64,000 bases of DNA from Candidatus Poribacteria bacterium (GTDB lineage: Bacteria > Poribacteria > WGA-4E > JAJDTR01), in the NCBI GenBank assembly GCA_965208765.1, contig OZ242354.1:1383343-1447342 (forward strand). Direction: 5' to 3'. Under the pieces are notes generated by a model that saw only the letters and a list, made by a program, of their open reading frames with translations, was not told where the DNA came from and ran no database searches. The translations under genes were made by a program, and so were the position numbers. Positions 5,789 through 52,427 of the stretch are shown piece by piece; position 1 is the stretch's first letter; every line of letters starts with the position of its first letter.

Positions 5789-5959
5789 GAAGTCATAAAT
5801 TATGCGACTTGTTTACCAAGAAACAGAAAGCCTGAGTTTTTGGTTCACGTTCGCTAGGTTTTAGAAAAATTCGATTTTCGTGGAGTTCCGCGTCTCCGTG
5901 TCCGCTGCGAAAAATTCCTGATTCATGTCTGATTAGCCTCCCAACGCGAAGAAATCAGC

Positions 5960-6373: not shown

Positions 6374-6939
6374 CTCCACGATACATCGCTAGGGAAGGAA
6401 TTCGGTATTGGAAAGTAACTAACCCTCGAAGCACTAGAAATACCACGATGCCAATGCTATATAGCATAGTAAACATAACCTTCCCCCTATTTTTCTTTGC
6501 CGGAACAGTCGGTTGCGCTCAACTAAAGACCGTTGGTGAAGGAGGACTGGAGCGGGCAGAAGACAATACTTGAGTTGACGCAATAGGCAGTGTTTTGCAC
6601 TTCGATGTCCACGATTCGCTATGAAAACTACTCGAATCCGGCATGATTGTCCGTTTAACCGCCAATCGATTTTATCGTCGCCGGAGCAGTTAGACTGTCG
6701 CAATCCGGTTTGAATCGCTTGATATTCGGGGGTGACCCCATCGTCGATTTCACACATTCGGGTCCAGGCATTTCTAAAGGCGAAGTGAGGACAAGTGGCA
6801 GTTCGACTCCTGTTGTTCCCTCGCATTCGTCGTATTGATGGGTTGATTTCTTCGAACCAAGCAAGTGGACCCGATGCTGCGCATGTTTCGTCACTCTTAC
6901 AAACTGATCTAGGCAGTTACCATCGGAGGATAGCAGCGA

Positions 6940-9560: not shown

Positions 9561-10306
9561 TGGCAACAGCAACTTTTAGGATTTGGCGCGGTGACGCCGA
9601 TCACGCGGAGTTCGTCGATTACGAAAGTGAAGTCTCCGAAGGGATGGTAGTACTTGACGTTGTGCACCAGATCCAAGCACAACAGGCAAACGATCTCGCC
9701 GTACGTTGGAACTGTAAGGCTGGAAAATGCGGATCTTGCTCTGCTGAGGTCAATGGTCATCCAAAACTGATGTGCATGACTCGGTTGAACGACTTACCTC
9801 TTGACCAGCCAATCACCATCGAACCGATGCACACTTTTCCATTGATAAAGGACTTGGTCACCGACGTTTCGTGGAACTTCGAAGTAAAGAAGAAAATAAA
9901 GAAATTCAACCCTCGCCCACCTGACGCTGATGACGGTACCTGGCGAATGGCGCAGGAGGATATTGACAGGGTACAAGAATTCCGTAAATGTATCGAGTGT
10001 TTTTTGTGTCAGGATGTTTGCCATGTGCTTCGCGATCATCACCTTCACCATGAGTTTATCGGACCTCGATATTTTGTGCATAACGCCGCCTTGGAAATGC
10101 ACCCGCTCGACACCGAAAATCGTCTAGAAGATCTAAAGGAAGCAGATGGAATTGGATATTGCAACATTACCAAATGCTGTACTAAAGTCTGCCCGGAACA
10201 CATCACAATTACGGATAACGCCATCATTCCTCTTAAGGAGCGTGTAGTGGATCAGTTTTACGACCCGCTAAAAAAGCTGTTCCGGATTTTTCGTCCTCGA
10301 ACCTGA
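9560..10306 (+). CDS. sdhB: succinate dehydrogenase iron-sulfur subunit
   Basis: 2Fe-2S, 4Fe-4S and 3Fe-4S cysteine clusters (CKAGKCGSCSAEVNG; CIECFLCQDVC; CNITKCCTKVCP). Its start overlaps the sdhA stop by 1 nt. Confidence 0.93.
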   Translation: MATATFRIWRGDADHAEFVDYESEVSEGMVVLDVVHQIQAQQANDLAVRWNCKAGKCGSCSAEVNGHPKLMCMTRLNDLPLDQPITIEPMHTFPLIKDLVTDVSWNFEVKKKIKKFNPRPPDADDGTWRMAQEDIDRVQEFRKCIECFLCQDVCHVLRDHHLHHEFIGPRYFVHNAALEMHPLDTENRLEDLKEADGIGYCNITKCCTKVCPEHITITDNAIIPLKERVVDQFYDPLKKLFRIFRPRT

Positions 10307-10575
10307 GTTTGTTGCTTACCGACCGTCGATGAATTCTGTTAGGCTGCGAATAGACTCCAAAAGAGATAAACACGTCGGATGCAGTTTTTCCCGATTTGTT
10401 TAACCTGCCGGTCTAGATTTCGTCCGAGAATATGGTCAATTCGTCCGGTATGTCTAACCCGCCGTCGTAGGACAAGCAATTTTTTTTTGAGAATTCTAAT
10501 ATGATGGCTCAGATGATATTTCAGATGAACATAAGTCAAGATAAAGTGTATTTATAGGGCAAGGAGGAGATTGAC

Positions 10576-12744
10576 ATGAAGTTTTCGTACCGCTGTAGTT
10601 TGATCTTATGCTGCTTAGTTATCGTATCGCTCGCCGCTTGCATTACAGGAGGCGTATCGAACAAAATCGAGAAATTGATCGAGGCGAAGGATTACCACGG
10701 AGCCATCGAAGTTTACCAAACCGTTGTCAACGCAAAACCTGGAACATCCGAAGCCCGCGAAGCCCAGCTTGAGATGGCTAAGCTGTATACAAAGAAGCTG
10801 AATAAGCCGGATCGCGGTGCGGAGTTGTATCAGGAGGTTATTGCGTCCGCGCCGGACAGCCAGGAAGCGGCAAACGCCCACTATGAGTTGGGGATGTATT
10901 ACTTCCGATCTAAGGAGTATGAATCTGCACAAGGACAGTTTGATACGGTTGTGAATAAATTCTCTGAATTGGAACTTAGCAACAACGCCCAACTTATGCT
11001 TGCCAAGAGTTTTGAAGAAGCCGAGGACTATAAGCAGGCTGCTGAAATCTATGATAATTTCGCTAACCGTCATCCCGCGAGCGAACGCGCCGCGTTGGCA
11101 CTTGTAAATAAAGCTAGAATTCAAAAGAACTACCTAAAGAACCAACAAGAAGCCAAGCGCACGTACCAATCAATTGTAAAAAAGTATGGCCGGCTTGAAG
11201 GGGTTGAGGATCAAATTAATGAAGCAAAACAAGAACTGACCGAAATTGGTGCGAGCATTCCCAAACCCGACGACCCGTTGGAAACACAAATGGGGCGCGC
11301 TCTGGAACGACAAAGGAAACGCCTAGAAAGGGACCGCCCGCGCGGAGGCGCAGAAAAGAGTCGTGCGATGGGTGTTACTTCCATCATCCCGGATTCTGGC
11401 TTTGGTATCAGCGCACAGGAAATAATGAAAAATTTTGGTGCTCCGCTCGGAATTCAAGCTGATCCGGATGGAACATACTACGACGCGCAATTCATGATTG
11501 CTGGTTTCCTTTTCGGAGATGAACACTATCGTGATGCGGGAGCAATCCTCTTTGACGCAATCCACCGGGCGAAAAACGATAATGCTAAAATTGATCCGTA
11601 TTACTATGTGCGACTGTCGATCTGCTATCGGAAGCTAGGCATGCATAAGCGTGCGCGAGAAATGCTCGAGCAAGCGGTAAAAGTAGACCGAAATGTTCTT
11701 GATGCCGTTATCACAGCGGGGCAAGATCGCTACGCCGATGCGAGGATTATGGATACCGAGGAAGACAAGCAAGAAGCCTATGAACAAGCGATCGCGATCT
11801 ATAACTCCGTCCTAGGTTTCAATAAAGGTAAGGATGCGGATGTCTATTTTCGGTTAGGCCTAGCCTATCAGAAGATGGGGAACCTAGACATGGAACGCGA
11901 ATCTTTTGAACGTGCTGTCGCTGTAGATACAGACCACATGGACGCGCTCCAATGGTTACCGGATGTCTACAAACGGATGAAGAACCGGTCACGGGCAACG
12001 ACCTTTCAGAACATCGTTGACGGCAAGGGCGAACTTTATGTGAATAAGATGGTCATTGGCGACCTTTGTTACAACTACGAAAATTACAGAAAGGCGAAAT
12101 CTCTCTATTCTGCAGCAGCGCGAAATGCCGAGCGCGGCGGTAAAGTAGACATCAACATGGATTCGGCAGAACGCCTTACACGCTTACCCGGGATTGGCTC
12201 TACATTGGCTAACGCAATTATTGCCGGACGGCCGTATGAAAGAGCCGACGATTTGCTTCGCGTAGAAGGAATCGATGAGCAAAGGTTAGACTCCCTTCGC
12301 GATAGAATTGCGGTGCAAAGGAGCGTGGCACGAGAAGAAAAGAGGCAGCGAGAAAATAGAATTGTTCATTCGACGATTCGCGCAGCGATGGCGGCTCAAA
12401 AACTGGGACAAGAAGATAACGTGAGCGAACTAATGGAGGGATTGGCAGAGAGATTTTCCGAGCATCCACTCCTTCCATACGGGCAGGGCGAAATCGCTCT
12501 GATTAAGGGCGAAACAGATGCCGCTATTGAATCTTTCAAAAAAGCAATTGAGATTGCTCCACACTCCGACTTCGCCCCGGTGGCTCTCGGCGAATATTAT
12601 CTCTCCAAGGGTTACGATGATGAGGCGCTGGCGGTTTGGGAGACATTTCTTGAAGGAAATAGATACAATAGAAACGTTATTGAGCGCCTTAAGAAGCTAA
12701 AATCCAAAATCAACAGCGCAAGCGCGGCCGCCGAGTTGGAATAA
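10576..12744 (+). CDS. TPR-repeat lipoprotein with C-terminal helix-hairpin-helix (ComEA-like) motif
   Basis: Lipobox LAAC in the signal peptide. Multiple TPR-like repeats. HhH motif RLTRLPGIGSTLANAIIAGRPY. The promoter-like AT-rich region and GGAGG ribosome-binding site lie upstream. Confidence 0.7.
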   Translation: MKFSYRCSLILCCLVIVSLAACITGGVSNKIEKLIEAKDYHGAIEVYQTVVNAKPGTSEAREAQLEMAKLYTKKLNKPDRGAELYQEVIASAPDSQEAANAHYELGMYYFRSKEYESAQGQFDTVVNKFSELELSNNAQLMLAKSFEEAEDYKQAAEIYDNFANRHPASERAALALVNKARIQKNYLKNQQEAKRTYQSIVKKYGRLEGVEDQINEAKQELTEIGASIPKPDDPLETQMGRALERQRKRLERDRPRGGAEKSRAMGVTSIIPDSGFGISAQEIMKNFGAPLGIQADPDGTYYDAQFMIAGFLFGDEHYRDAGAILFDAIHRAKNDNAKIDPYYYVRLSICYRKLGMHKRAREMLEQAVKVDRNVLDAVITAGQDRYADARIMDTEEDKQEAYEQAIAIYNSVLGFNKGKDADVYFRLGLAYQKMGNLDMERESFERAVAVDTDHMDALQWLPDVYKRMKNRSRATTFQNIVDGKGELYVNKMVIGDLCYNYENYRKAKSLYSAAARNAERGGKVDINMDSAERLTRLPGIGSTLANAIIAGRPYERADDLLRVEGIDEQRLDSLRDRIAVQRSVAREEKRQRENRIVHSTIRAAMAAQKLGQEDNVSELMEGLAERFSEHPLLPYGQGEIALIKGETDAAIESFKKAIEIAPHSDFAPVALGEYYLSKGYDDEALAVWETFLEGNRYNRNVIERLKKLKSKINSASAAAELE

Positions 12745-22288: not shown

Positions 22289-24571
22289 CTATTTCAAAAT
22301 CACCATCCGGCGCGTAACGGAATAAGCGTCAGTCTCTAGCCGATAGAAATAAAGTCCCGACGCAACCGGTTCGCCAAGTCCATCTCGCCCATCCCAGTAC
22401 GCTGCACGGTTCCGACTCGTATACACGCCCGCAGGTTTGTGCCCGATCATCAGCGTTCGTACTCTCCGCCAGTTCATATCATAAATCGTCAACACTACCT
22501 CGGAGGGCTCCCCCAACTGATACGGTATCCATGTGTCCGGATTAAACGGATTGGGGTAATTCGGTAGCAATGCCGTCTGATTGGAAGTTAAAGAAGTGAC
22601 TGAGCGTGATAGTTCTAACAGTAGCCCGGTCTTATTGACGACTTCTATTCGTTTAACGCCGCCCCATGTCGTAGGAAGTCTGAGATCCCACAGCAGAACC
22701 GTGCTATCCCAACTCCCGCTGGCAAGCGTGTTCCCATCGGGAGAGAACGCTACAGAGTTGACTCTCCACCTATGTCCTGATAAGGTTCGTACCTGTTTCC
22801 CGGTGCGAACCTCCCACAGACGAACCGTTCTGCCGTAATTCCCGCTACCACTCGCAAGCATTCTTCCATCAGGCGAGAAGACGACACAAGTCACATCGTC
22901 CATATGGCAAGAGAGAGATTGCAAGTGTTCGCCGGTGATAGAATTCCACAAACGAATTGTACCGTCATCGCTTCCGCTAGCAATCGTGGTGCCGTCGGGT
23001 GAATATGCAACTGAATTTATCGTCCACTTGTGCCCGGCAAGAATCTTCGAGGTCTTTCCAACGCGGAGATCCCACACACGAATCGTTCCATCCCTGCTGC
23101 CACTGGCAAGCGTATATCCGTCGGGCGAGAATACTACGGAAGTGACTCCCTCCGTATGGCCGGAAAGAGTCCGCAAGTGCTCGCCGGTGAGAGAATCCCA
23201 CAAACGAATGGTGTTGTCGTGGCTGCCGCTCGCAAGCGTGAACCCTTCGGGCGAAAACGCAACCGTGTTAACTCCTTTCTGATGACCTTGAAGGCTGTGC
23301 AGGAGGTCCCCTGTACCCGAATCCCACAGACGAATCGTCTTGTCGTATTCCGCGCTCCCACTGGCAAGCATCATCCCATTGGGTGAGAAGGTTACCGAGG
23401 TGACCCAACCTGTATGCCCGGAAAAAATTCGCACAACTTTCCCGGTGCGCATGTCCCACAGACGGACGGTCCGGTCCCAACTTCCACTAGCCATTGTGTT
23501 CCCATCGGGAGAGAAGACAGCGGAGTTTATTCTGCCCGTTTGGCCCGCAAGAGCCCGAAAGCGTTTCCCTGTGCGAACATCCCAAATACGAACCGAGTTG
23601 TCGTAACTCCCACTGGCTAATGCGGACCCGTCAGCCGAATATGCTAAGCTGTGGACTCCCTCGGTGTGCTCCTCGAAGGTCATCAGGGCTTCCCCGGTGC
23701 GTGCATCCCACAACCAAATCGCCCCGTCATATCCTCCGCTGGCAAGCTCGTCTCCACCGGGTGAGAAGACTACGGAAGCAACTCTAGCTTTATGTTTTAT
23801 AAGCGTCTGAAGGTGTACTCCAGTGCGTGTATCCCACAACCGAATAGTGTTGTCGTGACTGCCACTGGCAAGTGTGAACCCATCAGGAGAGAAAGCTACG
23901 CTCCAAACTCCACCTGCGTGCCCTTCAAGGATCATCAGGGCTTTTCCAGTCCGAGCCTCCCACAGCCGAATTGTCTCGTCGGTACTCCCACTGGCTACCG
24001 CGCTTCCGTCGGGGGAAAACGCCACGGAAGTGATCATTTGCCTATGACCTTTAAGGGTGAGCAACTCTTCCCCTGACCGCACATCCCACAAACCAACCGT
24101 GTTGTTCCAACCGCCGCTCGCAAGTGTCAATCCGTCTGGGGAAAACGCAATGGAAGTGGCTCTGCCCGGATGTTTGAATGTCTGAAGGCGACGACCCGTA
24201 CGTGTTTCCCAGATTTGAATCGTATCAACATAAGATCTAAGGGAGAGTCTGGAATTAGAAAAACTGGCATTGGCAAACGTGTGCCCACTGGGCGAAAATG
24301 CCACGGCAGTGGTCCATCCCGTTTCTGCCGCATGTAGCGCGACTTCGACATCGGTGTTCGCATCGTAGAGCCAAACGCCGATGCTACCCCCGACCGCCAG
24401 CCACGCCCCATCAGGCGAATGCGCGATGTGGGATACAGAACCTTTGCCGAAACGTGCTGCGGCGCCGTCGGGCAGATACCAGCGGGTAACGTCGTGAGCG
24501 AAGCTGCTCCCGAACAACAAAGCAGAAACCAAAATAAGACCAAGCTTAACCAAGGAGTTTTTTCTCATCAA
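22289..24571 (-). CDS. WD40-repeat (beta-propeller) protein with C-terminal T9SS-type sorting domain
   Basis: Signal peptide. About 14 WD40 repeats (GH...SVAFSPDG...LASGSxDxTIRLWD). The C-terminal about 90 aa match the Por-secretion-tail/FlgD-Ig-like pattern (NYPNPFNP...GVYTS..WDGRD..GEPVASGLYFYRL). Confidence 0.85.
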   Translation of the reverse strand: MMRKNSLVKLGLILVSALLFGSSFAHDVTRWYLPDGAAARFGKGSVSHIAHSPDGAWLAVGGSIGVWLYDANTDVEVALHAAETGWTTAVAFSPSGHTFANASFSNSRLSLRSYVDTIQIWETRTGRRLQTFKHPGRATSIAFSPDGLTLASGGWNNTVGLWDVRSGEELLTLKGHRQMITSVAFSPDGSAVASGSTDETIRLWEARTGKALMILEGHAGGVWSVAFSPDGFTLASGSHDNTIRLWDTRTGVHLQTLIKHKARVASVVFSPGGDELASGGYDGAIWLWDARTGEALMTFEEHTEGVHSLAYSADGSALASGSYDNSVRIWDVRTGKRFRALAGQTGRINSAVFSPDGNTMASGSWDRTVRLWDMRTGKVVRIFSGHTGWVTSVTFSPNGMMLASGSAEYDKTIRLWDSGTGDLLHSLQGHQKGVNTVAFSPEGFTLASGSHDNTIRLWDSLTGEHLRTLSGHTEGVTSVVFSPDGYTLASGSRDGTIRVWDLRVGKTSKILAGHKWTINSVAYSPDGTTIASGSDDGTIRLWNSITGEHLQSLSCHMDDVTCVVFSPDGRMLASGSGNYGRTVRLWEVRTGKQVRTLSGHRWRVNSVAFSPDGNTLASGSWDSTVLLWDLRLPTTWGGVKRIEVVNKTGLLLELSRSVTSLTSNQTALLPNYPNPFNPDTWIPYQLGEPSEVVLTIYDMNWRRVRTLMIGHKPAGVYTSRNRAAYWDGRDGLGEPVASGLYFYRLETDAYSVTRRMVILK

Positions 24572-24602: not shown

Positions 24603-24956
24603 CTACTTTGAGCGTCGTTTGGTCGGACGATTGATTTTCTCGTATCGCATCTGCTTTTCGTGTTTCAGATAAAGTGGAAGCGTATCCCCTACCAGGCAGA
24701 GATGTCGATAGTCCTTGTAGTTTGGGTTGTGAAGTTGAAGCCGCTTGTGAAACTTTTTCGACCACTCTGTTCGCCAACTCAGCCGCTGGCTTGCGTTGCT
24801 CTCGACAATAGGCTCTGATTTTGTGTAGTTCTCTCGCATCTGTCGTACCTTCTCATCGAAACTGGTCGGTTCTTCAAGCCAACTCACTACCTTCCCGGAA
24901 CAGCCAGCAAGTGATAATAAACCGACTATGAATATCGTACTCAGCCATCGCGTCAT
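24603..24956 (-). CDS. small lipoprotein, hypothetical
   Basis: Lipobox LLSLAGCSG. It is encoded immediately upstream of, and on the same strand as, the WD40 gene. Confidence 0.45.
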   Translation of the reverse strand: MTRWLSTIFIVGLLSLAGCSGKVVSWLEEPTSFDEKVRQMRENYTKSEPIVESNASQRLSWRTEWSKKFHKRLQLHNPNYKDYRHLCLVGDTLPLYLKHEKQMRYEKINRPTKRRSK

Positions 24957-25093
24957 TCTTCCGCCCTTCCTTTCCAGCGCGGAAACTCCCGCATTATTCG
25001 AATAATCGATCGCCTACCATGCGGTTACCGAAGCAGGTAGTTGGGCCGATATGAGAATCGTATAACTCAAAGACCCGATAACAACACTATGAC

Positions 25094-25253
25094 ACTAAGT
25101 GGTCTATTCGCTAAGAATTTAGTGCTTCCGAGACTGGCACAAGAAACGGTTATACCGTTCCGGTAGGTGAGGTTTTTAACCGCACCGGCACCCAACAATA
25201 ACCATATTTTTTTGGAAAATAAATCACTAAGTAGCCTATTCGTTAAGAGCATG
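25094..25253. repeat. 132-bp hairpin repeat family: one full unit plus a partial unit abutting the IS left end
   Basis: gtggtctattcgctaagaatttagtgcttccgagactggcac...ccggtaggtgaggtttttaaccgcaccggcaccc...ggaaaataaatcactaagtagcctattcgttaagagcatg. Confidence 0.8.
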
Positions 25254-25263
25254 TTTGAAAAGT

Positions 25264-27092
25264 ACATTTGTAGGGTGCGCACGGCGCACCAGCCTTTAAA
25301 GCCCCAGTGGGGCGGAAGGTGTGTAGAAATACCGAAACCCTGTACGCCAAAGCCCCAGCGGGGCGACAGGTACATAGCGGTAAATTACAAAAACGCGTCT
25401 TCAAATGACTAAAAATGGCTTTGCTACCGAATTTTCAAACAGGTTCTAAGCTCGACTTTGTACAAAACTAGAAGGGGAATAAGGTAAAATTAGTCGAAAA
25501 AGCAACACCATTCGACTAAGGAGGTACACCTTGATTCCCCCATCGCTGATAACATTGTTAACTCCGTTTCAATCATTGTTTCGACGTCCTAGCTGGATTA
25601 AAATCCAAATCTTACTCGTTGGAACAATCCTTTTAACCGGTAGGCGAACAGTAACTCAAGCCCTGAGAGTGACCGGTCGGTCAGCCGACAATCGGTTTGC
25701 TCTGTATCACCACGTGCTTAGCCGTGCGGTTTGGTCCCCTCTGCAAGCCGCCCAAAAACTGTTGTTTACGTTATTGAAGTTCCTCGACGACGGTAAGCAA
25801 CCGTTAGTATTTGGCATTGATGAAACGATTGAGCGCCGCTGGGGAGCCAAAATCAAAGCACGAGGTATCTATCGTGATGCCGTGCGTTCTTCATCAAGCC
25901 ACTTTGTCAAAACCAGCGGATTACGTTGGATAGCGCTGATGTGGCTAACACAGATTCCCTGGGCATCATGTATCTGGGCGCTGCCGTTTTTGACGGCACT
26001 TGCACCCTCCAAACGTTACTATGAGTCTGAAAAACGTTGCCACAAGAAACTCACTGACTGGGCAAGACAAATTGTATTTCAACTTCGCCGGTGGTTGCCC
26101 AATCGTTACTTGGTTGTGGTCGCTGATTATAGTTATGCGGTGTTAGAATTCCTTGCAGCTTGCCAAGAATTGTCAAATCCGGTAACCATTATCACTCGTT
26201 TGCGACTTGATGCAGCACTCTACCAACCTGCTCCACCTTATAGCGGTACAGGACGTCCTTGTAAGAAAGGAGAGCGGTTACCTACCTTGGCTGACATTCT
26301 GCATGACCCAAACACCCAATGGCAGAACCTTGATTGGTATAACGGTCAACAAAGAGAAATGCAAATCATCTCACAGCCAACCGTTTGGTATCACACGGGC
26401 AAACCCCCGGTGTCAATCCGCTGGGTTTTGATACGAGACCCTCTTGGCAGTTATGAACCGATAGCCCTTTTATCAACTGACACAACACTTTGTCCCAACC
26501 AGATAGCCAACTGGTATGTTCGTCGCTGGCGAATGGAAGTCACTTTTGAAGAAGTGCGTGCCCATCTAGGCGTGGAAACACAAAGACAATGGTCGGATAA
26601 AGCGATTGCTCGCACGACTCCAATGCTATTTGGACTGTTCTCTTGGATTACCTTAGCTGCTCATCTACTGGTTCAACAGAATCAAGTAGAAGTGCGACAG
26701 GCTGCATGGTATCAGAAATCGTTAGCCACCTTTTCTGATGCAATAGGGTGGGTGAGACACCATTTTTGGTCTGCAGAAGCGGACATGACTTTTTCACAGG
26801 TCAACCAAAATGACCAGATGGTTAAAATCTCAACCGCTTTTCTCGAACGCTTGATTGACACCGTCTGTTATTCCGCTTAAATGTACAAAGTCGAGCTGAG
26901 AACCTGTTTGAATAATCGGTAGCGAAACCATTTTGGGGCATTTGTAGAAGTTTTTTCACGATTTTATTGTCTCCTGCTACGTACCTGTCGCCCCGCTGGG
27001 GCTTAGGTGCACGGGGTTTTGGCATTTCTATACACCTTCCGCCCCTCTGGGGCTTTTAGAGGCTGGTGCGCAGTGCGCACTCTACAAACGTA
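25264..27092 (+). mobile_element. IS4/IS701-like insertion sequence with about 210-bp terminal inverted repeats
   Basis: The left region (25264 to about 25470) and the reverse complement of the right region (26882 to about 27092) align along their whole length (tacatttgtagggtgcgcacggcgcaccagcc...gctcgactttgtaca). They flank a single DDE transposase ORF. Confidence 0.8.
25531..26880 (+). CDS. DDE transposase, IS4 superfamily (IS701-like)
   Basis: 449 aa. Candidate catalytic D (GIDETIERRWG), D (VVVADYSY) and E within a Y-x2-R-x3-E-x6-(K/R) motif (YVRRWRMEVTFEEVR). Confidence 0.85.
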   Translation: MIPPSLITLLTPFQSLFRRPSWIKIQILLVGTILLTGRRTVTQALRVTGRSADNRFALYHHVLSRAVWSPLQAAQKLLFTLLKFLDDGKQPLVFGIDETIERRWGAKIKARGIYRDAVRSSSSHFVKTSGLRWIALMWLTQIPWASCIWALPFLTALAPSKRYYESEKRCHKKLTDWARQIVFQLRRWLPNRYLVVVADYSYAVLEFLAACQELSNPVTIITRLRLDAALYQPAPPYSGTGRPCKKGERLPTLADILHDPNTQWQNLDWYNGQQREMQIISQPTVWYHTGKPPVSIRWVLIRDPLGSYEPIALLSTDTTLCPNQIANWYVRRWRMEVTFEEVRAHLGVETQRQWSDKAIARTTPMLFGLFSWITLAAHLLVQQNQVEVRQAAWYQKSLATFSDAIGWVRHHFWSAEADMTFSQVNQNDQMVKISTAFLERLIDTVCYSA

Positions 27093-27264
27093 CTATTCAA
27101 ACAGGTTCTAAACATTTACAATGAAAGAAACCTGGATTTCAAGGGAAAAGAGGAGGATTGAGGGAAAATCGAAGTGGGGAATGGATTACCAAAAAAGGAA
27201 TCCTCATTTTTCGAGGGAGGGGACGAACTTGGAGTATTTTAAGCGTCTCTGCGCTCCACAACTG

Positions 27265-29508
27265 TTATAACTCAACGGCTATGCCCAAGTAAGGGATAAT
27301 CGGGAATTGATAGATATCTTCTTTTTCGGTGTAATCGTCGTTGTAGCTGAAGTCGAGTAGGTTCTTGCGGTTATAGGCGTTCAACAGTTCGAGAAAGACG
27401 CGCATCTGCCAATTAGAAAAGCGAAAGGCCTTGCTAATCTTCACGTCCAGCCGATGATAGGCCGGCAAACGTGCTGAATTGGTCTCCGCGTAGATTGGGA
27501 CGTAGATGAATTCGTCGTTGCGCGGGTCGGATTTTAAGTCAGCCCCGAGCACCGGCGTGTAGGGATTGCCGGTCCGGTATTGCCATTTCGTGCCAATTTC
27601 CCAGGTTGGAGTCGGACTGTAGGTCGCCGCAAGCGTCGCCACGTGCGTTTGGTCGAACGAATAGAAGCGGTACGGTTCGCCGGGGCTATCCCGCCGTTTG
27701 GAGAGTCCATAGGCATAAGAACCCCAACCGAGGAATCGCTCCCCGGTTTGATGTCGTAGGAACACCTCGGTGCCCTGCGCGAACCCGACGCCCTGATTGA
27801 GATAATTTGCTTCGTCATCGTTGGTCACCAAGTCGACGAGGTTCTTGTAGTAACCGGCGAGCTTGATCTCGGTCGTCTCAGAGATTTCACGCGTATACTC
27901 CAGTACGTAGTGACTGGCTCGGCTGGTGCTCAACTCCGGGTTGCCGACGCTCCGCGTAAGCCTCGGCGGTGTCGGCACTTGCTGATAGTTGCCGTAGGAA
28001 AACTGGACCTGAGAACCCGGCGAGATTTCAAACAGGAGACTTCCGCGCGGTTGGATGGAGAGTCCGTCAATCTGATTCAAGTAATCCGTTCGCAAGCCGA
28101 GTACGACTGACAAAAATGGCAATACCCTGTATCGGTCTTGCAGATAGATTTCAAGTCGTTTTCCAAGTGAGGATTCGTCGATCGATTGCTTCTCGATAAA
28201 CCGGGGATCGTAATCGACTTCGCCCTCATCAGGCGGACGCAGAAAATTGCCGGTAGCCCTACCCGGTTCGAGTCCGAGTATCAAACCGGATTCAATCTGA
28301 TGTTTCGGCGTCAGCGTGTAGGTGAGGTCCTCGCGAATCACGTACTGCGGCGCATCAACTTTGAGCGATAGATCAGCGCCGATATTGACATCAAACGCGA
28401 AAAAGGAACGGGTCAAGGATAGATAGGAGGTCAAGCGGTCAGTGAGAAGGGAACGGAGGTGAATACCGGCTCCCTCGAAACCGCTGTCAAAGTCTATATT
28501 CCCTCTTAGATCCTCGTCCACATCTTCGCCATCCAGCTTGAGCGCGAAGCTGTCACCGGAGGCAAATAAATTGAGCGAGAGTTGATGCTTTTCAGAGAGG
28601 TTATAACCTCCCTTTATCTGATAATCCCAAAATCGGGGGAAGGCGGTGATTTGTCCGCTATCAAATGACAATGACCTGAGAAACAGGTCGATGTAGCTTC
28701 TTCGTCCGGCTGCATACCAAAATCCCTTGTCGCCAATCTTGCCTTCTAATAGCCCTTCGGAGTAGAGCAAATTGAGGTTGAATTTTGCATCGAAACCGTC
28801 CGTGTTTTTGTTCCTTGAATAGATGTCGATCACGGCCTGGGAGTCGACGCCAAATTCGGCGCCGTAACCGCCGGCGTAGACGTCAATCCGTTCAATGACT
28901 TCGGAACTGAGGGAGGAAACAATTCCGCCGAAATGGTAAGGGTAACCGATCGGCACCCGGTCAAAGTAATAGAGGTTGTCTGTATCGGCGCCGCCGCGGA
29001 TATACAGGGCGCCGCTAAAGTCGTTTGCCACACCGACAGCGGGCAAGGATTGTAGGGCGCGGAGAGCGTCTCCCGCCGTGCCGGGGACGCGCTGAATCTC
29101 TGCGCCGCCCAAACTCTGTCTGCCAACCGACGGCAAAGGACGATCGGTTGTAACCTCTACTTCGTCAAGGGGCACAACAACCGGCTCAAGTAAGATTTCA
29201 ACACGCGTGATTTCCGCCGGCGCTACGGTAGCCGGGGTATCCGTAGAAGGTAGGTATCGTGAAGCGTATGCGGCAAGGGTATAATGCCCGGGTGGCAGGT
29301 TGCGAATCTGAAACTCGCCGTTCGCATCGGTGAGAACGCGCTGACCGGTCTCGACGATGCGCACTTGTGCGGATTCGATGGGCTGTTTAAGATTCTGTTG
29401 AAGGACTGTGCCGTAGATTTCGCCGGATTGGCTTGAAGCCTGCTGTCCATATGCGATACAGGGACATAGGCACAATACGAATAGTATTTTAGTGCAAATC
29501 TGTTTCAC
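27265..29508 (-). CDS. TonB-dependent outer-membrane receptor with N-terminal carboxypeptidase-regulatory-like domain
   Basis: Signal peptide. CarbopepD_reg-like start (GEIYGTVL...ANGEFQIRNLPPGHYTL). Plug domain and a long barrel ending in a C-terminal aromatic residue (…IPYLGIAVEL). Confidence 0.85.
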   Translation of the reverse strand: MKQICTKILFVLCLCPCIAYGQQASSQSGEIYGTVLQQNLKQPIESAQVRIVETGQRVLTDANGEFQIRNLPPGHYTLAAYASRYLPSTDTPATVAPAEITRVEILLEPVVVPLDEVEVTTDRPLPSVGRQSLGGAEIQRVPGTAGDALRALQSLPAVGVANDFSGALYIRGGADTDNLYYFDRVPIGYPYHFGGIVSSLSSEVIERIDVYAGGYGAEFGVDSQAVIDIYSRNKNTDGFDAKFNLNLLYSEGLLEGKIGDKGFWYAAGRRSYIDLFLRSLSFDSGQITAFPRFWDYQIKGGYNLSEKHQLSLNLFASGDSFALKLDGEDVDEDLRGNIDFDSGFEGAGIHLRSLLTDRLTSYLSLTRSFFAFDVNIGADLSLKVDAPQYVIREDLTYTLTPKHQIESGLILGLEPGRATGNFLRPPDEGEVDYDPRFIEKQSIDESSLGKRLEIYLQDRYRVLPFLSVVLGLRTDYLNQIDGLSIQPRGSLLFEISPGSQVQFSYGNYQQVPTPPRLTRSVGNPELSTSRASHYVLEYTREISETTEIKLAGYYKNLVDLVTNDDEANYLNQGVGFAQGTEVFLRHQTGERFLGWGSYAYGLSKRRDSPGEPYRFYSFDQTHVATLAATYSPTPTWEIGTKWQYRTGNPYTPVLGADLKSDPRNDEFIYVPIYAETNSARLPAYHRLDVKISKAFRFSNWQMRVFLELLNAYNRKNLLDFSYNDDYTEKEDIYQFPIIPYLGIAVEL

Positions 29509-29734
29509 GTAGTGCTATTTTCCTCGCGTCCTTTTCAAGTCGACATTAATGACGTCAAATGGTCCGACCGTGTTTACACCTTGACGCCAAAAAAGATGCG
29601 AAAATAGAAGAAGCGTTGCATCGGCTGAAATTCCCTTGGATTTCTCGTATAGGTTTGGGTCAATCAGCAAAAAAGCCATAAGAGGCGCGATTATTGCACC
29701 TCGGCAATAACTCGGTTCTCGACACAAGTCTGTA

Positions 29735-29800
29735 GGGTGCGCACTGCGCACCAGTCTCTAAAAGCTCAGCTTTGGCGGAAGGTGTGTAGTAACACCTGAA
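29735..29800. repeat. solo fragment of the IS terminal inverted repeat outer end
   Basis: gtctgtagggtgcgcactgcgcaccagtctctaaaagc...ggcggaaggtgtgtag matches the outer about 70 bp of the IS terminal repeat. Confidence 0.6.
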
Positions 29801-29982
29801 TTTCGCCTACCTAAGCCATGACGGGATCAGGCCAGTCTATAGCGAGCGCGATAGCTGTCCGACAGGCATTTTGACGCGTAGCTACACCACGATGAAAAAG
29901 CTTGTCTTCAAAGGACTGAAAATTGCTTTGCTGCAACTAATAATACAGGATCTGACGATCGGTATAAAAAATTTCCTCCACT

Positions 29983-30605
29983 GTACATCTGTAGGGTGGG
30001 CACTGCCCACCATTTCCTTTACGGTGCGATCAATCGACTGGATAAGGGTCAACCGAGCGGACAATGAGGGCGGCAGAAAATACCGTGCGATTGAGCACCT
30101 ACCAGCCTTTGAAAGCAACAACGGCGCGACAGGTGCATAGCACCGGGGAGTTTACCACATTCAAACCTAAGTTGGTGGATAAATGCCCCATCCTCGGATG
30201 TTATGTCGCTCAAATTATAAGCTCGACTTTGTACATTTGAGCAGTATAACAGACGGTGTCAATCAAGCGCTGGAGAAAAACGGGTGAGATTTTACCCATC
30301 TGGTCTTATGGGTTGACGTGTGAAAAAGTCTTCGCTATAGACTAGAACTGGTGTTTCACGCAACCCGATGCATCGGGGCAAATCGCTGGCGATTTCTAAA
30401 AGCCTCTAACCTTTAGATCTCTATCGTCTTCGCTATTTGCTCAGTTGATCCCACGCCGGGGCTTTGGTTTAGTGTGGCTTGGCTTGCTATACACCTTTCG
30501 CGCCGCTGGCGCTCTCAAAGGCTGGAAGATCTCCATCGCGCTCATTATTCATTCACTTGATTGCAGTACGCACCTTACAAGAAATGGTGGGCAGTGCCCA
30601 CCCTA
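29983..30605 (-). mobile_element. internally deleted (non-autonomous) copy of the IS at 25264-27092, in reverse orientation
   Basis: A full terminal repeat (29983 to about 30245) is followed by the last about 60 nt of the transposase gene in reverse complement (encoding ...QRLIDTVCYTAQ). About 200 bp of unrelated sequence follows, then a terminal repeat outer end in the opposite orientation (30455-30605). Confidence 0.6.
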
Positions 30606-30622
30606 CAAATGTACAAAGTCGA

Positions 30623-30745
30623 GCTAAGAATTTAATGCTTACGAGACTGGCATAAGAAACGGTTCTACCACGCCGGTAGGTGCGGTTTCTAACCGCACCG
30701 GCACCCAACAATAACCATATTTTTTTGGAAAATAAACCACTAAGT
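30623..30745. repeat. 132-bp hairpin repeat family copy directly abutting the IS-derived terminal repeat
   Basis: gctaagaatttaatgcttacgagactggcataagaaacggttctaccacgccggtaggtgcggtttctaaccgcaccggcacccaacaataacc...ggaaaataaaccactaagt. Confidence 0.85.
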
Positions 30746-30955
30746 CGCCAAATGTTGAATGGTTCCATATTCAATACGTGAATAGATTCAAAATAGTCAA
30801 AGTCCGACTACGACGCGTAGGTAAGGCACGGCTTTTCGGTGTAGAATCGGCACGACAATCAAGTAAAGCAGTGTGACATTCAATCCGCAGAAAACGAAGA
30901 ATTTGGACGGAACTAGATTCCGTGCGAAACTTCGGAATGATGAGAGTTTTGATGC

Positions 30956-32614
30956 CTAGTGCCAAATGCGGGGGCTGTTATCGGCGACCGCCGACACGTG
31001 TTTCTGGGAAGAGGAAAAGATGAGGGCACTATCGGGCAAAGGTTGGGCAGCCAATAGCAGACAAGTTGACGGGGAACTTCCCCTTTGCCAAGCCTCGATG
31101 AACGGTGTTTCGCTTAGCCGCTTCGTGTGTCGTTCAAGCGGATTTGTTAGGCTGATCTGACCAGCTTCTGTGTCCCATGCAGTCATCACCCACGGGTGTG
31201 TACCGCCTACAAGTGATCGCAACATCACAATCGGCGTCCAGTTTTCCGCCAGCAATTCGCGCAGATCGGTTGGGTCACAGTGAGAGATTAAGAGCGGATG
31301 TTGGCCTGCGCTTCGAGCGACTCGTCGCAATTGGGCAAGAGAGTATGCGTCAAACTCTTGAGCGCTTCGGACGGCGCGAAGACGGCGGAAGGCATTGCTG
31401 ATTGAGTGGCTAGATGCCTGCATGTGGAAGCGTTTTTCTCCAGCGATCACGCGAGGATTTCCAATCTTCTCGTCAGGAATACTCAACTGAGAGACAAATG
31501 ATCCTATCTCTCTGTCGGGATTTATCCGTGGATTGAGGCGAGCGATGACGGCTCTGTCGAGACAGTGGTTCATACGTATACCAAGCCGTGTTGCGGCAAA
31601 GACCTCGTCTGGCGTGATAGATATAATCGCCGAAATTAATTCAGGGACGACTATATCCATTTTCTTTGGCGTGAGTATAAGGGAACTTGAATCCAATACA
31701 TTAGATGCTTGAGCCGGACAAACCGCTTCCAGCGTACGAGGTTCCAGTATCGGCGTTTTCCTGTGCACGCTTCTTCGTGAGAAAGGTAAATCCTGCCGGG
31801 CTGGAGATTCACGAGAATTCCCCTCGCTGGTCGGCAATGGAGAGCGAACATGCGCCGGATTTGTGAGGGTGACAATATTCGTTTCCTGAGATTCATTCGT
31901 ATGGTTTTCGCCGGTCACATCCATCGAACCGTAGATTAGGACCGTTACAACTGCTAGATGTGCAGCTATCGAGATAAACCCTGAGATCGGTGTCGCCGTG
32001 GATGCAGAAACACCTGATCCATCTACACGGTGTCGGAAACCTCTCCACGGCAAAACGAAGCAACTTAGATAGAATCGCAGTTTCACCTGCAAGGATTTTC
32101 GTGCCACGCTGAACAAAGACTTAACCGCTTGTACACTGCCCCCGATCTGTTTGGCAATTTCCCGATACCCAAGCCCTTCAAGCAGACGTAGTTTTGCGAC
32201 TGATCGCTGACGCTTTGGAAGCGCGTCAATCGCTTTCTGGATTTCTCCTTGTAGTTCCCTGTCAGTTGCCTCATCTAACGGATCACGTCCGCTGCCAGGT
32301 ACCGCTGCGAGAACATCGTCATTGCGGTCTACCTCAACATGATAATTGCGTCGATAATTGTCAATGCACTGATTTTTCGCGACCCGATGTAGCCAGGCGT
32401 GATAGCTGCGGCGATGATCAAAGGAATCAATGTGTGACACGACCTTGAGAATCGCTTCTTGATAGATGTCCTCCGCTTCCTCGTAGGATCTGGCCATCTG
32501 TGCAATCAGTCGAATCATGCGCACGCGGTAACGCTGATCAAGCGCGGCAAGAGCCGTAAGGTCACCCCTCTTGAGACGTATCACAAGCTCCTGATCAGTT
32601 GGTTCGCATGACAT
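30956..32614 (-). CDS. ECF-type RNA polymerase sigma-70 factor fused to a transmembrane/periplasmic C-terminal extension of about 350 aa
   Basis: N-terminal sigma-70 region 2 and region 4 (DIYQEAILKV...; ALPKRQRSVAKLRLLEGLGYREIAKQIGGSVQAVKSLFSVARKSL). Then a hydrophobic segment (ISGFISIAAHLAVVTVLIYG) and a long domain I cannot assign. Confidence 0.7.
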   Translation of the reverse strand: MSCEPTDQELVIRLKRGDLTALAALDQRYRVRMIRLIAQMARSYEEAEDIYQEAILKVVSHIDSFDHRRSYHAWLHRVAKNQCIDNYRRNYHVEVDRNDDVLAAVPGSGRDPLDEATDRELQGEIQKAIDALPKRQRSVAKLRLLEGLGYREIAKQIGGSVQAVKSLFSVARKSLQVKLRFYLSCFVLPWRGFRHRVDGSGVSASTATPISGFISIAAHLAVVTVLIYGSMDVTGENHTNESQETNIVTLTNPAHVRSPLPTSEGNSRESPARQDLPFSRRSVHRKTPILEPRTLEAVCPAQASNVLDSSSLILTPKKMDIVVPELISAIISITPDEVFAATRLGIRMNHCLDRAVIARLNPRINPDREIGSFVSQLSIPDEKIGNPRVIAGEKRFHMQASSHSISNAFRRLRAVRSAQEFDAYSLAQLRRVARSAGQHPLLISHCDPTDLRELLAENWTPIVMLRSLVGGTHPWVMTAWDTEAGQISLTNPLERHTKRLSETPFIEAWQRGSSPSTCLLLAAQPLPDSALIFSSSQKHVSAVADNSPRIWH

Positions 32615-32953
32615 AGCACACCTCTAATCCGTACAGCTAACGATATATACGCGAAAATGCTCCAAAGGGTCAAAAAAAACAGCATCTTATTCGGTGTTTC
32701 CCGACTAACGTCCCCTCACTCGTCTCAGACATCCTCGGTTCTCCTCCGCCCAAAGCCAATTGGAGGAGCATTTTTGGCGTTGGCCTCTCGTGTAAGCATT
32801 CGCTCTCGCAGCAGTCCGCACCCCATCTGCAATTCTCGATTTTGACCTTTCCCAATCATTCTGCGTACATCAAAGCAAGTGACATTCTCGTTTACGATAT
32901 GTTTTGGTTCATCATGGACGGCAAATCAATTGGCATACCTGGGAGGTAACACT

Positions 32954-33405
32954 ATGAGAAGATTTCACCCGCACCTGTTCATCAGTTGTTTGTTAGTCAC
33001 TAGCTGTGCGACCTTGCTCTCGGAACAGCAATATATCCAAGTTGATGAGAAAGTCACAGAAACCGTTCTACCACGCCGGTAGGTGCGGTTTCTAACCGCA
33101 CCGGCACCCAACATAACCATATTTTCTTGGAAAATAAACCACTAATGTACTCAATTCCCGAGAAAAGAGAAATCCGGAGAATCATTATTTTGGGCGAAGG
33201 AACAGTGACTAATGTTGATATTTATGCTCGCAACTCGGAGAATAATTGGAAGCGAATTAAGAAAATCAAGAAGACTGTAGGATTTCCGATTGAAATTAAT
33301 GTAGTTCTAAAGGCCGACGCTGTTCGGATTAACCAGAAAAGAATACGAGGCAGGGGCAGCATCAATTCGGTCCGATTTTTCGCGCTTTCGAAAGAACAGC
33401 AGTAG
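32954..33405 (+). pseudogene. lipoprotein-family gene (paralog of 5960-6373) interrupted by insertion of a repeat-family copy
   Basis: The N-terminal fragment (MRRFHPHLFISCLLVTSCATLL...QVDEKVTE) and the out-of-frame C-terminal fragment (YSIPEKREIRRIIILGEG...INVVLKADAVRI) are both homologous to the 5960-6373 product. They are separated by a repeat copy of about 91 bp (33055-33146). Confidence 0.55.
33055..33146. repeat. 132-bp hairpin repeat family: hairpin-containing half unit inserted into a coding sequence
   Basis: cacagaaaccgttctaccacgccggtaggtgcggtttctaaccgcaccggcacccaacataaccatattttcttggaaaataaaccactaa. Confidence 0.8.
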
Positions 33406-40512: not shown

Positions 40513-41601
40513 CTAGAACCGAAGCATGAGTTCGAAAACGTTTAATCTTTTTCCATTGGGCCCGCGCGGCACTTCCACTGCGTAGTCAAACTGATAGTCA
40601 AGCAATTTCACGCCCAAGCCATATGTCAGATGATCCGAAAAATTCAACAATTCTATCCCCGGTTCCGTTTTGTAACCAACGCGCAACGCAAGAAGCTTTC
40701 CGAGCCAATATTCGACGCCGATGCTTTTCCGTAAATGCCTCCATTCAAAGGCACGTATGCCAACGCCTCGATCTGAAAGTACGTCGCTACGCGTTTGGTC
40801 GGGATGTTCTTTCAAGTGTCGTTCTATCTCTTCTTCATCCTCAATTAACTTATGGATAGATGCCGTTATATCTCCAATAAGACTGACCCGATGATTTGTT
40901 TCTTCGTAGAGCACCACAGCCGTCCCCAACCTGAACTTGCGGGGGAGCGGATCGCTTTGATTCTCGTCTATGAAGTGCAGGCGTGTGCCCCAGTTCTGGA
41001 GGGCGGCTCCGATTTTTACCGGCAAAAATGCATTCAACAAATCGTACTGCGCACCAAAATCAACGGCATAAGCACCGCCGCTCTCCTGCCCTAACTTGAG
41101 CCTGATAATCTTGCCGTTCAATCCGGCGGATAGCCGCTCGGTTAATTGGTCGGCGTATGAAAATGTCAATATCCAATTCGTCCCCAGGTTTTCCTCCCTG
41201 ATGGGATTGGGAGAATCCGTTGTGACCAAGATAGTGCCTTGTCCCTCAAGCTGGAGCGTCGCTCCGAGAATGCCGGCATCGCCAATCGGCATGGCTCCGG
41301 CAAAGAACGCATAATACAGTCCTTCCCCCGCCTCGCCGAAGATGTCTCCTTGATTCTTGTACGAAAGTGCCACCTGCCTGTCTTGGATGATTCCCAATCC
41401 GCCGGGATTCCACAGGGCGCTAGTCACGTCCCCATCAACAGCCGTGAACGCATCCCCCAATGCCGTCGCACGCGTTCCGCCGCCAAGGTCTAAAATTTGA
41501 GCGCCTTGTGTGCCAGGACCCGCCAATCCTGAAGTGGGAGGCAGAATTGTCGTCGCTATCAACACGACCGTGGCTACCAAAGATAGGTTTACTCGCTGCA
41601 T
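40513..41601 (-). CDS. PorV/PorQ-family outer-membrane beta-barrel protein (T9SS-associated family)
   Basis: Signal peptide, the characteristic N-terminal motif GGGTRATALGDAFTAVDGDVTSALWNPGGLG, and a C-terminal aromatic residue (LMLRF). Confidence 0.6.
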   Translation of the reverse strand: MQRVNLSLVATVVLIATTILPPTSGLAGPGTQGAQILDLGGGTRATALGDAFTAVDGDVTSALWNPGGLGIIQDRQVALSYKNQGDIFGEAGEGLYYAFFAGAMPIGDAGILGATLQLEGQGTILVTTDSPNPIREENLGTNWILTFSYADQLTERLSAGLNGKIIRLKLGQESGGAYAVDFGAQYDLLNAFLPVKIGAALQNWGTRLHFIDENQSDPLPRKFRLGTAVVLYEETNHRVSLIGDITASIHKLIEDEEEIERHLKEHPDQTRSDVLSDRGVGIRAFEWRHLRKSIGVEYWLGKLLALRVGYKTEPGIELLNFSDHLTYGLGVKLLDYQFDYAVEVPRGPNGKRLNVFELMLRF

Positions 41602-47863: not shown

Positions 47864-50182
<2,319 letters not shown>

Positions 50183-51319: not shown

Positions 51320-52427
51320 ATGATAGCAGATCTAAAGTCCGATGTTGATAGCATGAACACACGACTCGCCGAACTCCGGAGGTATCTTTGACCTGGAGAA
51401 CAAAGAGAATGAACTGGCGGATCTAGACGTAGAGTTTTCAAAACCCGACTTTTGGAACAACCCGCAGCAAGCCCAGAAAACCAGCCAGCGAATGGCGCAA
51501 CTCCGCAACGAGGTAACACAGTACAACGAGATTGAATCCGAATTACAGAATCTCCAAGTGTTGGTTGACCTCGCTATTGAAGAAGACGATGAGAGTTTCA
51601 ACGATGAGATTGATGCCGGGCTGAAGGAAATCTCCAAGCAGGTTGAAGACATCGAACTCAAGCTGATGCTTGACGGGGAACATGACATCAACAACGCACT
51701 ACTGTATATCCATCCCGGCGCAGGAGGTACCGAATCGCAAGATTGGGCATCCATGCTGATGCGTATGTACATTCGTTGGTGCGAACGCAGCGGCTATAAA
51801 ACGGAAACCCTCGACCTGACTCCGGGCGATGAAGCCGGCATCAAGACTGCCACAATACTCGTAACGGGAGAATTTGCGTTTGGATATCTGCATGCGGAAG
51901 CAGGAATACATCGGCTAGTCCGCCTGTCACCGTTTGACTTCAACCACCGTCGTCATACCTCCTTTGCCGCTGTCGCCGTCAGCCCCGAAATCGATGATAC
52001 CATCGAAGTCGAAATCGACCCCGCCGACTTGAGAATTGACTACTATCGTTCAAGCGGAGCAGGCGGACAACACGTGAACGTTACCGATTCTGCAGTCCGC
52101 ATGACTCATCTCCCTACCGGAATTGTTGTGCAGTGCCAAAATGAACGCTCACAGCACAAGAACCGTGAAGTCGCGATGAAAATCCTACGTTCCCGGCTGT
52201 ACGAGTTTTATGAGGCACAGCGGCGTGAGGAGATTTCCAAGATGCAGGGGGAACGGCTCGATATCAACTTTGGAAGTCAAATTCGCTCTTATGTGTTGCA
52301 TCCCTACCGACTCGTCAAGGACCTGCGCACCAACGTTGAAACCGGTAACGTGGATTCGGTCATGGACGGAGATTTGAACGCCTTCATCGAGGGCTATCTG
52401 AAACACAAGCAAGGACACAAGTCATGA
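51320..52427 (+). CDS. prfB: peptide chain release factor 2, with programmed +1 ribosomal frameshift
   Basis: Frame 0: MIADLKSDVDSMNTRLAELRRYL then TGA at 51389-51391. Immediately upstream is the canonical shift cassette GGAGG-TAT-CTT-TGA-C. Frame +1 from 51390 reads DLENKENELADLD...MAQLRNE... through the SPF and GGQ motifs to the stop at 52427. Confidence 0.9.
51371..51392 (+). other. prfB +1 frameshift site (internal SD-like GGAGG, slippery CUU, UGA-C stop context)
   Basis: ccggaggtatctttgacc. Confidence 0.85.

Follow-up and report, generated by a model that had tools for sequence, protein, structure and literature searches.

Domain architecture of the sigma factor fusion

The window analysed here, a stretch of 64,000 nucleotides of contig OZ242354.1, comes from Candidatus Poribacteria, a lineage of sponge symbionts. 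On its reverse strand it carries a gene in which an extracytoplasmic function (ECF) sigma factor continues in the same reading frame into a transmembrane (TM) helix and an extracytoplasmic C-terminal region. The gene and its parts are listed below.

30956..32614, reverse strand: whole gene (sigma factor, TM helix, spacer, C39-like domain and tail), a single open reading frame (ORF) of 552 amino acids (aa) plus stop
32345..32536, reverse strand: Sigma-70 region 2, residues 27-90 (Pfam: PF04542, E 1.7e-14)
32090..32245, reverse strand: Sigma-70 region 4 (Sigma70_r4_2), residues 124-175 (Pfam: PF08281, E 4.3e-11)
31991..32074, reverse strand: cytoplasmic juxtamembrane segment, residues 181-208 (28 aa), with the motif FYLSCF..PWR conserved in the alignment
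31928..31990, reverse strand: single TM helix, residues 209-229, from hydropathy and a conserved SG..S...HL pattern
31427..31927, reverse strand: extracytoplasmic spacer, residues 230-396 (167 aa), from composition, alignment and the ratio of nonsynonymous to synonymous substitution rates (dN/dS)
31040..31426, reverse strand: C39-peptidase-like (papain-fold) domain, residues 397-525, with no nucleophile at the canonical position and with H473, N491, C446 and C518 conserved
30959..31039, reverse strand: C-terminal tail, residues 526-552 (27 aa), ending in SPRIWH/Y, from alignments; a short strand is modelled at domain positions 157-159

The ECF sigma factor takes up residues 1-180 and is covered by a Sigma70_ECF Pfam match at 14-179. 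Regions sigma2 and sigma4 are both present and neither region 1 nor region 3 is matched by Pfam, as is characteristic of ECF (group 4) sigma factors. The general ECF model of NCBIfam, TIGR02937, scores 103.6 bits on the 552-aa protein against a cutoff of 42.9. The original prediction made for this DNA had described a complete ECF sigma factor with regions 2 and 4, and this is borne out by PF04542, PF08281 and TIGR02937, which all score above their cutoffs. The specific equivalog models of NCBIfam stay far under their cutoffs, and the nearest ECFs outside the family are 28-33% identical over the sigma core.

A hydropathy scan of the fusion returned exactly one strong segment, residues 209-229 (Kyte-Doolittle 2.06), in agreement with the TM helix predicted earlier. 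There are four K/R in the 28 residues preceding the helix, and one K/R but four D/E following it, a distribution which indicates that the sigma factor lies inside the cell and the C-terminus outside. Independent support for an extracytoplasmic location of the C-terminal domain comes from its about 30 stand-alone homologues, which are lipoproteins with signal peptide and lipobox.

An anti-sigma factor had also been proposed within the same chain, and this part of the prediction failed. Past residue 180 the fusion has no Pfam or NCBIfam match, FecR-like or other anti-sigma domains included, and the 28-aa segment between region 4 and the TM helix is too short for an anti-sigma domain. This segment contains a single Cys, shows no HxxxCxxC zinc-binding anti-sigma (ZAS) motif and has no Pfam match.

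The region behind the helix had been described as a periplasmic domain of about 350 aa. An extracytoplasmic region is indeed present, but it is composed of a spacer of about 167 aa, a folded domain of about 130 aa and the 27-aa tail. The spacer is P/S/T/N/Q/G-rich and its sequence is poorly conserved, with a dN/dS of 0.5-0.7 against three more divergent orthologues, of ~1 against the near-identical locus L005 (L001-L010 are the compared loci, P-numbers are proteins from other assemblies), and with dN values of up to 0.5. Its length is invariant, without one indel among six orthologues of 552 aa, and the alignments suggest that the spacer is constrained in length and not in sequence. In a single-sequence AlphaFold model of the full protein, with an overall predicted local distance difference test (pLDDT) score of 36, the confidence for the spacer is very low.

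Conservation of the C-terminal region is concentrated in its final ~155-aa block, and the conserved-looking block LISHCDPTDLRELL...GGTHPWVMTAWDTEAGQISLTNPLE singled out in the original prediction is the most conserved part of this region in the alignments. In pairwise comparisons with four orthologues, the sigma part has a dN/dS of 0.13-0.21 and the domain at residues 397-525 one of 0.16-0.20, which shows purifying selection on both. For the juxtamembrane motif together with the TM helix, dN/dS is 0.26-0.37 in three more divergent comparisons.

Conservation of the fusion in Poribacteria

A search with the C-terminal 324 residues gave 11 clusters among 5.8 billion sequences. The full-length clusters (545-561 aa) all bear sigma Pfam domains and one of them is annotated as Candidatus Poribacteria. 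Intact orthologues are 532-561 aa long, range down to 46% identity and all have the sigma factor and the C-terminal domain. Six of the orthologues have exactly 552 aa, all six genes being 1659 nt long. In the GTDB species representatives which were scanned, the C-terminal domain was found in four Poribacteria metagenome-assembled genomes (MAGs) only.

The homologous fusions that were to be looked for in related genomes are thus present, with one intact reading frame kept in at least ten independent Candidatus Poribacteria assemblies and with the fusion architecture found in two diverged sigma clades. One clade comprises the window protein and its relatives together with P0012, and the second one P0027, P0034 and P0047, which have the same layout of sigma factor, TM helix, spacer and domain and whose sigma domains were confirmed by Pfam.

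A trivial explanation for the fusion would be that a sigma factor and a downstream membrane protein were joined by a sequencing or assembly error, or that the gene is a decaying pseudogene. Sigma-only and C-terminal-only ORFs do exist in some assemblies (P0005-P0009, P0055-P0058), and this window has damage in two of its three putative target promoters or genes. However, the sigma-only and C-terminal-only ORFs end or begin in sequence that is out of frame and overlap each other at the TM helix, which shows them to be frameshifted copies, so that no separate C-terminal ORF, as might have appeared after correction of sequencing errors, underlies the split forms. The single intact frame of the independent assemblies, the six orthologues of exactly 552 aa, and a dN/dS well under 1 in both folded modules also speak against an artefact. 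We give an artefact a negligible probability, since the conserved single frame already refutes it.

Frameshifted versions of the gene occur in several long-read metagenome assemblies, reflecting either sequencing errors or recurrent pseudogenisation.

Fold and catalytic status of the C-terminal domain

Pfam, NCBIfam and PDB sequence profiles gave no significant match for the folded domain. The matches to Peptidase_C70 and those of relatives to Peptidase_C39_2 are sub-threshold, and all cover the half with the His and Asp. The Pfam gathering scores of PF03412 and PF13529 are not reached, since the best PF13529 score is 18.1 bits versus a cutoff of 24, in a relative, and the window protein itself matches neither family. 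An hhalign comparison of the domain with the C39-like domain (CLD) of HlyB was not significant either (probability 2.4%). By sequence, the domain does not qualify as a member of the peptidase C39 family.

The fold was recognised from structure prediction, which had been proposed for the C-terminal region in the original prediction. AlphaFold2 run on the domain with a 10-sequence alignment gave a model with a pLDDT of 77.2 and a predicted template modelling score (pTM) of 0.77, and Foldseek with this model ranked HlyB and PCAT1 first. On the basis of the model, the assignment of the domain to the papain-like alpha/beta fold (peptidase C39 / clan CA) is solid, at the superfamily level only.

An exhaustive profile search of 1.84 billion representatives with the domain found 43 proteins, including P0012, the second fusion clade (P0027, P0034, P0047) and about 30 stand-alone proteins of 200-230 aa. 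A further word-indexed homologue search with the domain alignment yielded four proteins, none of them new. The domain family forms about 40 clusters at 50% identity and has no Pfam or NCBIfam model. The WD40 proteins P0024, P0026 and P0028, which also appeared in the search of the representatives, are repeat-summed artefacts, and so are the designed Kelch 'SAKe' proteins matched in the PDB profile search with one alignment, in which the matches to ComA and CdiA were non-significant. Searching the PDB sequences with another alignment gave no match. Residue conservation was read across 38 representatives of the family.

His473: 23 of 38 representatives, among them every member of the sigma-fused clades
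N/D491: 36 of 38 representatives; N491-P492 is invariant in the sigma-fused clades
P492: 34 of 38 representatives
C446: 33 of 38 representatives
C518: 34 of 38 representatives
P461: 38 of 38 representatives
F505 and W509: 37 of 38 representatives each
Y/W480: 37 of 38 representatives

Helix 1 of the domain starts at S402, where the orthologues have S, M or L. At the N-terminus of this helix, which we equate with the catalytic Cys site of C39 enzymes from secondary structure and alignment and not from superposed coordinates, there is no conserved Cys or Ser in the 38 representatives. The domain is most likely a degenerate C39-like module of the HlyB kind which has lost its nucleophile, i.e. a binding module.

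Alternatively, the C-terminal domain could be an active cysteine protease with C446 as relocated nucleophile acting with H473 and N491, either for self-processing or for the cleavage of a periplasmic substrate such as a leader peptide. Its fold is that of processing peptidases, C446 occupies the N-terminal end of a helix, neither sigma-fused clade shows any variation at H473 or N491, and the N/D at position 491 is followed by Pro like the 'DP' of C39. However, C446 is located just 27 residues ahead of the His, and in the C39_2 profile it aligns to the middle instead of the catalytic Cys position. Of the 38 relatives, 15 have R, F or E in place of the His, and most of these 15 retain the Cys. 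C446 and C518 are each ~88% conserved in an exported domain, which fits a structural disulfide; as a candidate disulfide pair the two do not strictly co-vary in the representatives. The canonical nucleophile position is itself variable. We consider an active protease quite improbable.

Conserved neighbours and putative regulon

In L001, L002 and L004-L007 the genes are ordered as PorV-like, hypothetical, EPSP synthase, M14 peptidase, M24 peptidase, divergent small ORF, sigma fusion, a gene of ~117 aa and one or more WD40 genes. Three promoter-like sites and the putative target genes belonging to this neighbourhood were located in the window.

32648..32673, reverse strand: promoter-like site 1, TTTGACCCTT-N12-CGTAT, with the sigma start codon 34 nt downstream of it (putative autoregulation)
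32842..32867, forward strand: promoter-like site 2, TTTGACCTTT-N12-CGTAC, conserved in L001 and L004-L007, with the divergent small lipoprotein gene 87 nt downstream of it
30775..30800, reverse strand: promoter-like site 3, with its -35 mutated here (TGACTA), cut off from its target by an insertion
32954..33405, forward strand: divergent small lipoprotein gene (129 aa in L005), from tblastn of the L005 protein against the window
24603..24956, reverse strand: gene of the 117-aa lipoprotein with lipobox LAGC, by synteny directly downstream of the sigma gene in all relatives
22289..24571, reverse strand: gene of a 760-aa WD40 beta-propeller (Pfam WD40) with a type-A sorting tail of the type IX secretion system (T9SS), the conserved second downstream gene

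Aligning the upstream regions gave the motif TTTGACCYTT-N12-(G/C)CGTA(T/C), which is readable as TGACC-N16-CGTA, a two-block ECF-like promoter. In ~173 kb the strict motif occurs 18 times, always at one of the three orthologous positions, against an expectation of 0.005 per 64 kb. Site 1 is conserved in L001 and L004-L007 and is also found upstream of the distant copy in L009. In the relatives site 3 lies upstream of the 117-aa gene, at a distance of ~172 nt in L004-L007 and of 338 nt in L001. As a general rule, ECF sigma factors regulate their own genes. From this rule, together with the conservation and the position of the motif, we infer that the sigma factor reads the three promoters, and the motif set suggests autoregulation combined with a small local regulon.

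The T9SS tail of the WD40 protein is captured by TIGR04183 at residues 672-758 with 28.2 bits versus a cutoff of 23, which qualifies the protein as T9SS cargo. It consists almost wholly of WD40 repeats, and in L004 and L006 this place holds a second WD40 paralogue or a larger one. The 117-aa lipoprotein has no family match in Pfam or NCBIfam. The same conserved neighbourhood includes the PorV-like gene at 40513-41601, whose Pfam match is weak and just under the cutoff.

In this strain the sigma gene is intact, while site 3 and the divergent lipoprotein gene are damaged. The latter is interrupted by a ~68-bp repeat insertion (copy 33058-33134), which leaves the pieces 32954-33073 and 33142-33402. 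The fusion of L008, a Poribacteria MAG, is reduced to a C-terminal remnant of 240 aa (5761-6483), and one promoter-like site is kept at 6578. The sigma part is missing there, as are the small divergent gene, the 117-aa gene and the WD40 gene. This joint loss suggests that the genes belong together as a unit.

The second fusion clade has a classical ECF-type (sigma-W-like) sequence upstream of the gene, TGAAAC-N15-CGTC (L010 ~7850-7890). The neighbourhood of L010 differs, with a divergent gene for a transglutaminase-core protein and a GATase gene downstream. No partner genes shared among the contexts of the stand-alone homologues and of the second fusion clade were found.

The TonB-like gene and the strain-specific insertion

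Between the sigma gene and its conserved downstream genes the window contains additional DNA with two large genes.

25092..30743, no strand: strain-specific insertion of 5.65 kb, from blastn against L005, with a DDE_5 transposase and a TonB-like gene; not part of the system
25531-26880, forward strand: DDE_5 transposase gene (Pfam), inside the insertion
27265-29508, reverse strand: TonB-like gene, 747 aa (Pfam CarboxypepD_reg and Plug)

In the closest relative L005 (~95% nucleotide identity), positions 9544-11873 correspond to window 33072-30744 and positions 11880-12372 to window 25091-24599. The matches on both sides are thus nearly contiguous in L005, which identifies window 25092-30743 as an insertion. 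It is bracketed by direct repeats of 127 nt (25110-25236 and 30623-30749), and both of its genes are surrounded by nested inverted repeats of 75-116 nt.

The original prediction had the sigma gene adjacent to a TonB-dependent receptor and compared the pair with cell-surface signalling. Under this reading, a TonB-dependent transducer encoded next door would pass a signal to the fused sigma/anti-sigma factor, FecA/FecR/FecI and IutY being examples of such systems. The TonB-like outer-membrane gene with its Plug domain is indeed the next large ORF and on the same strand, IutY shows that sigma/anti-sigma fusions can serve in such signalling, and the degenerate promoter site 3 is now directed at the TonB-like gene. 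However, 1.45 kb of repeat DNA separate the receptor from the sigma gene, Pfam finds no STN signalling domain in the receptor, and the fusion has no FecR domain. Moreover, the receptor is not a conserved neighbour: it came with the transposase-bearing insertion and no TonB-like gene is found beside the sigma gene at the orthologous loci L001, L002, L004, L005, L006 and L007. An 835-aa gene of L004 was considered as a possible TonB-like counterpart and rejected, as it encodes another WD40 protein. This comparative context effectively refutes cell-surface signalling at the locus, which we regard as highly improbable.

The insertion looks as if an outer-membrane receptor gene had been mobilised by a composite or miniature inverted-repeat transposable element (MITE)-assisted event. 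Short repeats of one family, consisting of 77-nt units of 86-100% identity together with palindromic arms containing GTGGGCAGTGCCCAC, are scattered between genes around the locus (25142-25218, 30655-30731 and 33058-33134, also 29982-30028 / 30569-30615). The degenerate site 3 (30775-30800, reverse strand) faces the insertion with the start of the TonB-like gene (29508) ~1.27 kb downstream on the same strand. If site 3 were still active, the insertion could have rewired the output of the sigma factor.

Proposed activation of the sigma factor

We lean slightly towards reading the fusion as a single-polypeptide transducer, a tethered ECF sigma factor with a C39-like sensor which would be activated by release and would drive the three local promoters. 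The cytoplasmic sigma factor would be tethered via one TM helix and a flexible spacer of a fixed length of ~167 aa to the periplasmic C39-like domain. As no anti-sigma domain is present, membrane tethering itself would probably be the off state. The C39-like domain, which lacks the catalytic cysteine, would most likely act as a ligand- or peptide-binding sensor like the C39-like domain of HlyB. After ligand binding, regulated cleavage would first affect the exposed spacer and next the TM helix. The freed sigma factor would most likely drive three promoters, namely its own, the one of the divergent small lipoprotein gene, and the one ahead of the gene pair for the 117-aa lipoprotein and the T9SS-tailed WD40 protein.

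Proteolytic release is the most plausible activation step by analogy with IutY and ECF52 (PMC8999054). IutY of Pseudomonas putida is a sigma/anti-sigma hybrid of ECF243 whose sigma factor is released through Prc and RseP (PMC8999054), and both IutY and the ECF52 protein SCO4117 are described as sigma/anti-sigma fusions activated by proteolysis (PMC8999054, PMC7826278).

Several observations weigh against this transducer. No M50, S41, S1C or site-1/site-2 protease gene was found among the large ORFs annotated in the window, and the neighbouring M14 and M24 peptidases have N-termini apparently without signal peptides and look housekeeping. Tethering as the inhibitory principle is an assumption, given that no anti-sigma domain is recognisable. 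Finally, with H473 and N491 invariant in the sigma-fused clades and C446 conserved, a residual or unconventional catalysis is conceivable.

The main rival is that the sigma factor acts while anchored in the membrane, as ToxR or CadC do, and that the periplasmic domain exerts its effect through oligomerisation or conformation without any proteolysis. This would be in line with region 4 lying just 28 residues from the membrane and with no anti-sigma domain holding the sigma factor inactive, with the lack of linked protease genes, and with the conservation of the juxtamembrane motif and the TM helix noted above. On the other hand, a sigma factor must join core RNA polymerase and go with it through initiation, and we know of no ECF with demonstrated activity in the membrane-bound state. 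The known fused examples work by cleavage, and the long disordered spacer is the kind of element that proteases can typically reach. We judge membrane-anchored action to be unlikely.

A more far-reaching and still doubtful possibility, which we put forward tentatively, is that the fusions constitute an undescribed ECF group with no anti-sigma factor, only a tether, a spacer acting as a 'ruler' of fixed length, and a dead C39-like domain sensing a periplasmic peptide or unfolded protein. Possible ligands would then be the WD40 cargo destined for the T9SS or the regulon's two small lipoproteins. If so, Poribacteria would have a self-contained feedback circuit which monitors the export of eukaryote-like repeat proteins, and the stand-alone pseudo-peptidase lipoproteins would be a new family of periplasmic binding modules.

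Comparison with known systems

Like IutY, the single-polypeptide transducer proposed here has an N-terminal ECF sigma factor, a single TM helix and a periplasmic C-terminal part in one chain. IutY differs in having a FecR-type anti-sigma/periplasmic domain and an STN-bearing TonB-dependent transducer, neither of which is present here, where the sensor is C39-like. The ECF48, ECF52 and ECF53 proteins of Actinobacteria (e.g. SCO4117) are similar in that the ECF is followed by a long C-terminal extension with a proline-rich extracytoplasmic spacer and a terminal sensor (PMC5826349, PMC8999054). They have one or two TM helices, and a proteolytic activation model was proposed for them (PMC5826349, PMC8999054). 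In contrast to the fusion, they possess a ZAS before the membrane and a carbohydrate-binding domain outside, whereas here there is no ZAS, the fold is another one and the phylum is a different, diderm one.

The CLD of HlyB-type RTX exporters (PDB: 3ZUA) is cytoplasmic and N-terminal to the ABC transporter. The window domain is instead periplasmic, occurs at the C-terminus of a sigma factor or as a stand-alone lipoprotein and has no significant sequence similarity to the CLD, so that it does not fall under HlyB-type domains as defined by an N-terminal, cytoplasmic position on an ABC exporter whose unfolded substrate they bind. The C39 domains of PCAT1, ComA and LahT (PDB: 8VP3, 5XE8, 6MPZ) are active Cys-His-Asp peptidases on ABC exporters, while the nucleophile is absent here. 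ECF57 (formerly ECF01-Gob) of Planctomycetes has WD40 C-terminal extensions (PMC8999054). It likewise represents an ECF sigma factor functionally associated with a WD40 beta-propeller in a lineage related to the Planctomycetes-Verrucomicrobia-Chlamydiae (PVC) group, but there the WD40 is part of the sigma factor's own extension, whereas here it is the separate T9SS-tailed product of a putative target gene.

Full-text literature searches returned nothing relevant for C39 together with anti-sigma and nothing specific for Poribacteria sigma factors. ECF sigma factors with membrane-spanning regulatory extensions are a known kind of protein, and the new element is the unmodelled C39-like pseudo-peptidase sensor. 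ECF sigma factors fused to their own membrane sensors are the 'one-component systems of the sigma world', of which very few are characterised, and the lack of an anti-sigma domain poses the question of whether tethering alone can silence a sigma factor. The three conserved promoter-like sites offer a ready circuit of one protein and one motif. Eukaryote-like repeat proteins are thought to matter in sponge symbiosis, and a secreted WD40 protein, which is of this repeat type, within the putative regulon provides a link to symbiosis factors.

Other genes in the window

Rfam and tRNA scans of the window returned no hits. A catalase-peroxidase (KatG-like) gene at 47864-50182 is located in the only high-GC stretch of the window (0.61 versus ~0.49) and may have been horizontally acquired. 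A release-factor ORF at 51492-52427 contains PCRF and RF-1 domains, with the profile match beginning at position 32, and is preceded by GGAGG...CTTTGAC (51386-51392), the classical site of +1 programmed frameshifting in prfB (RF2).

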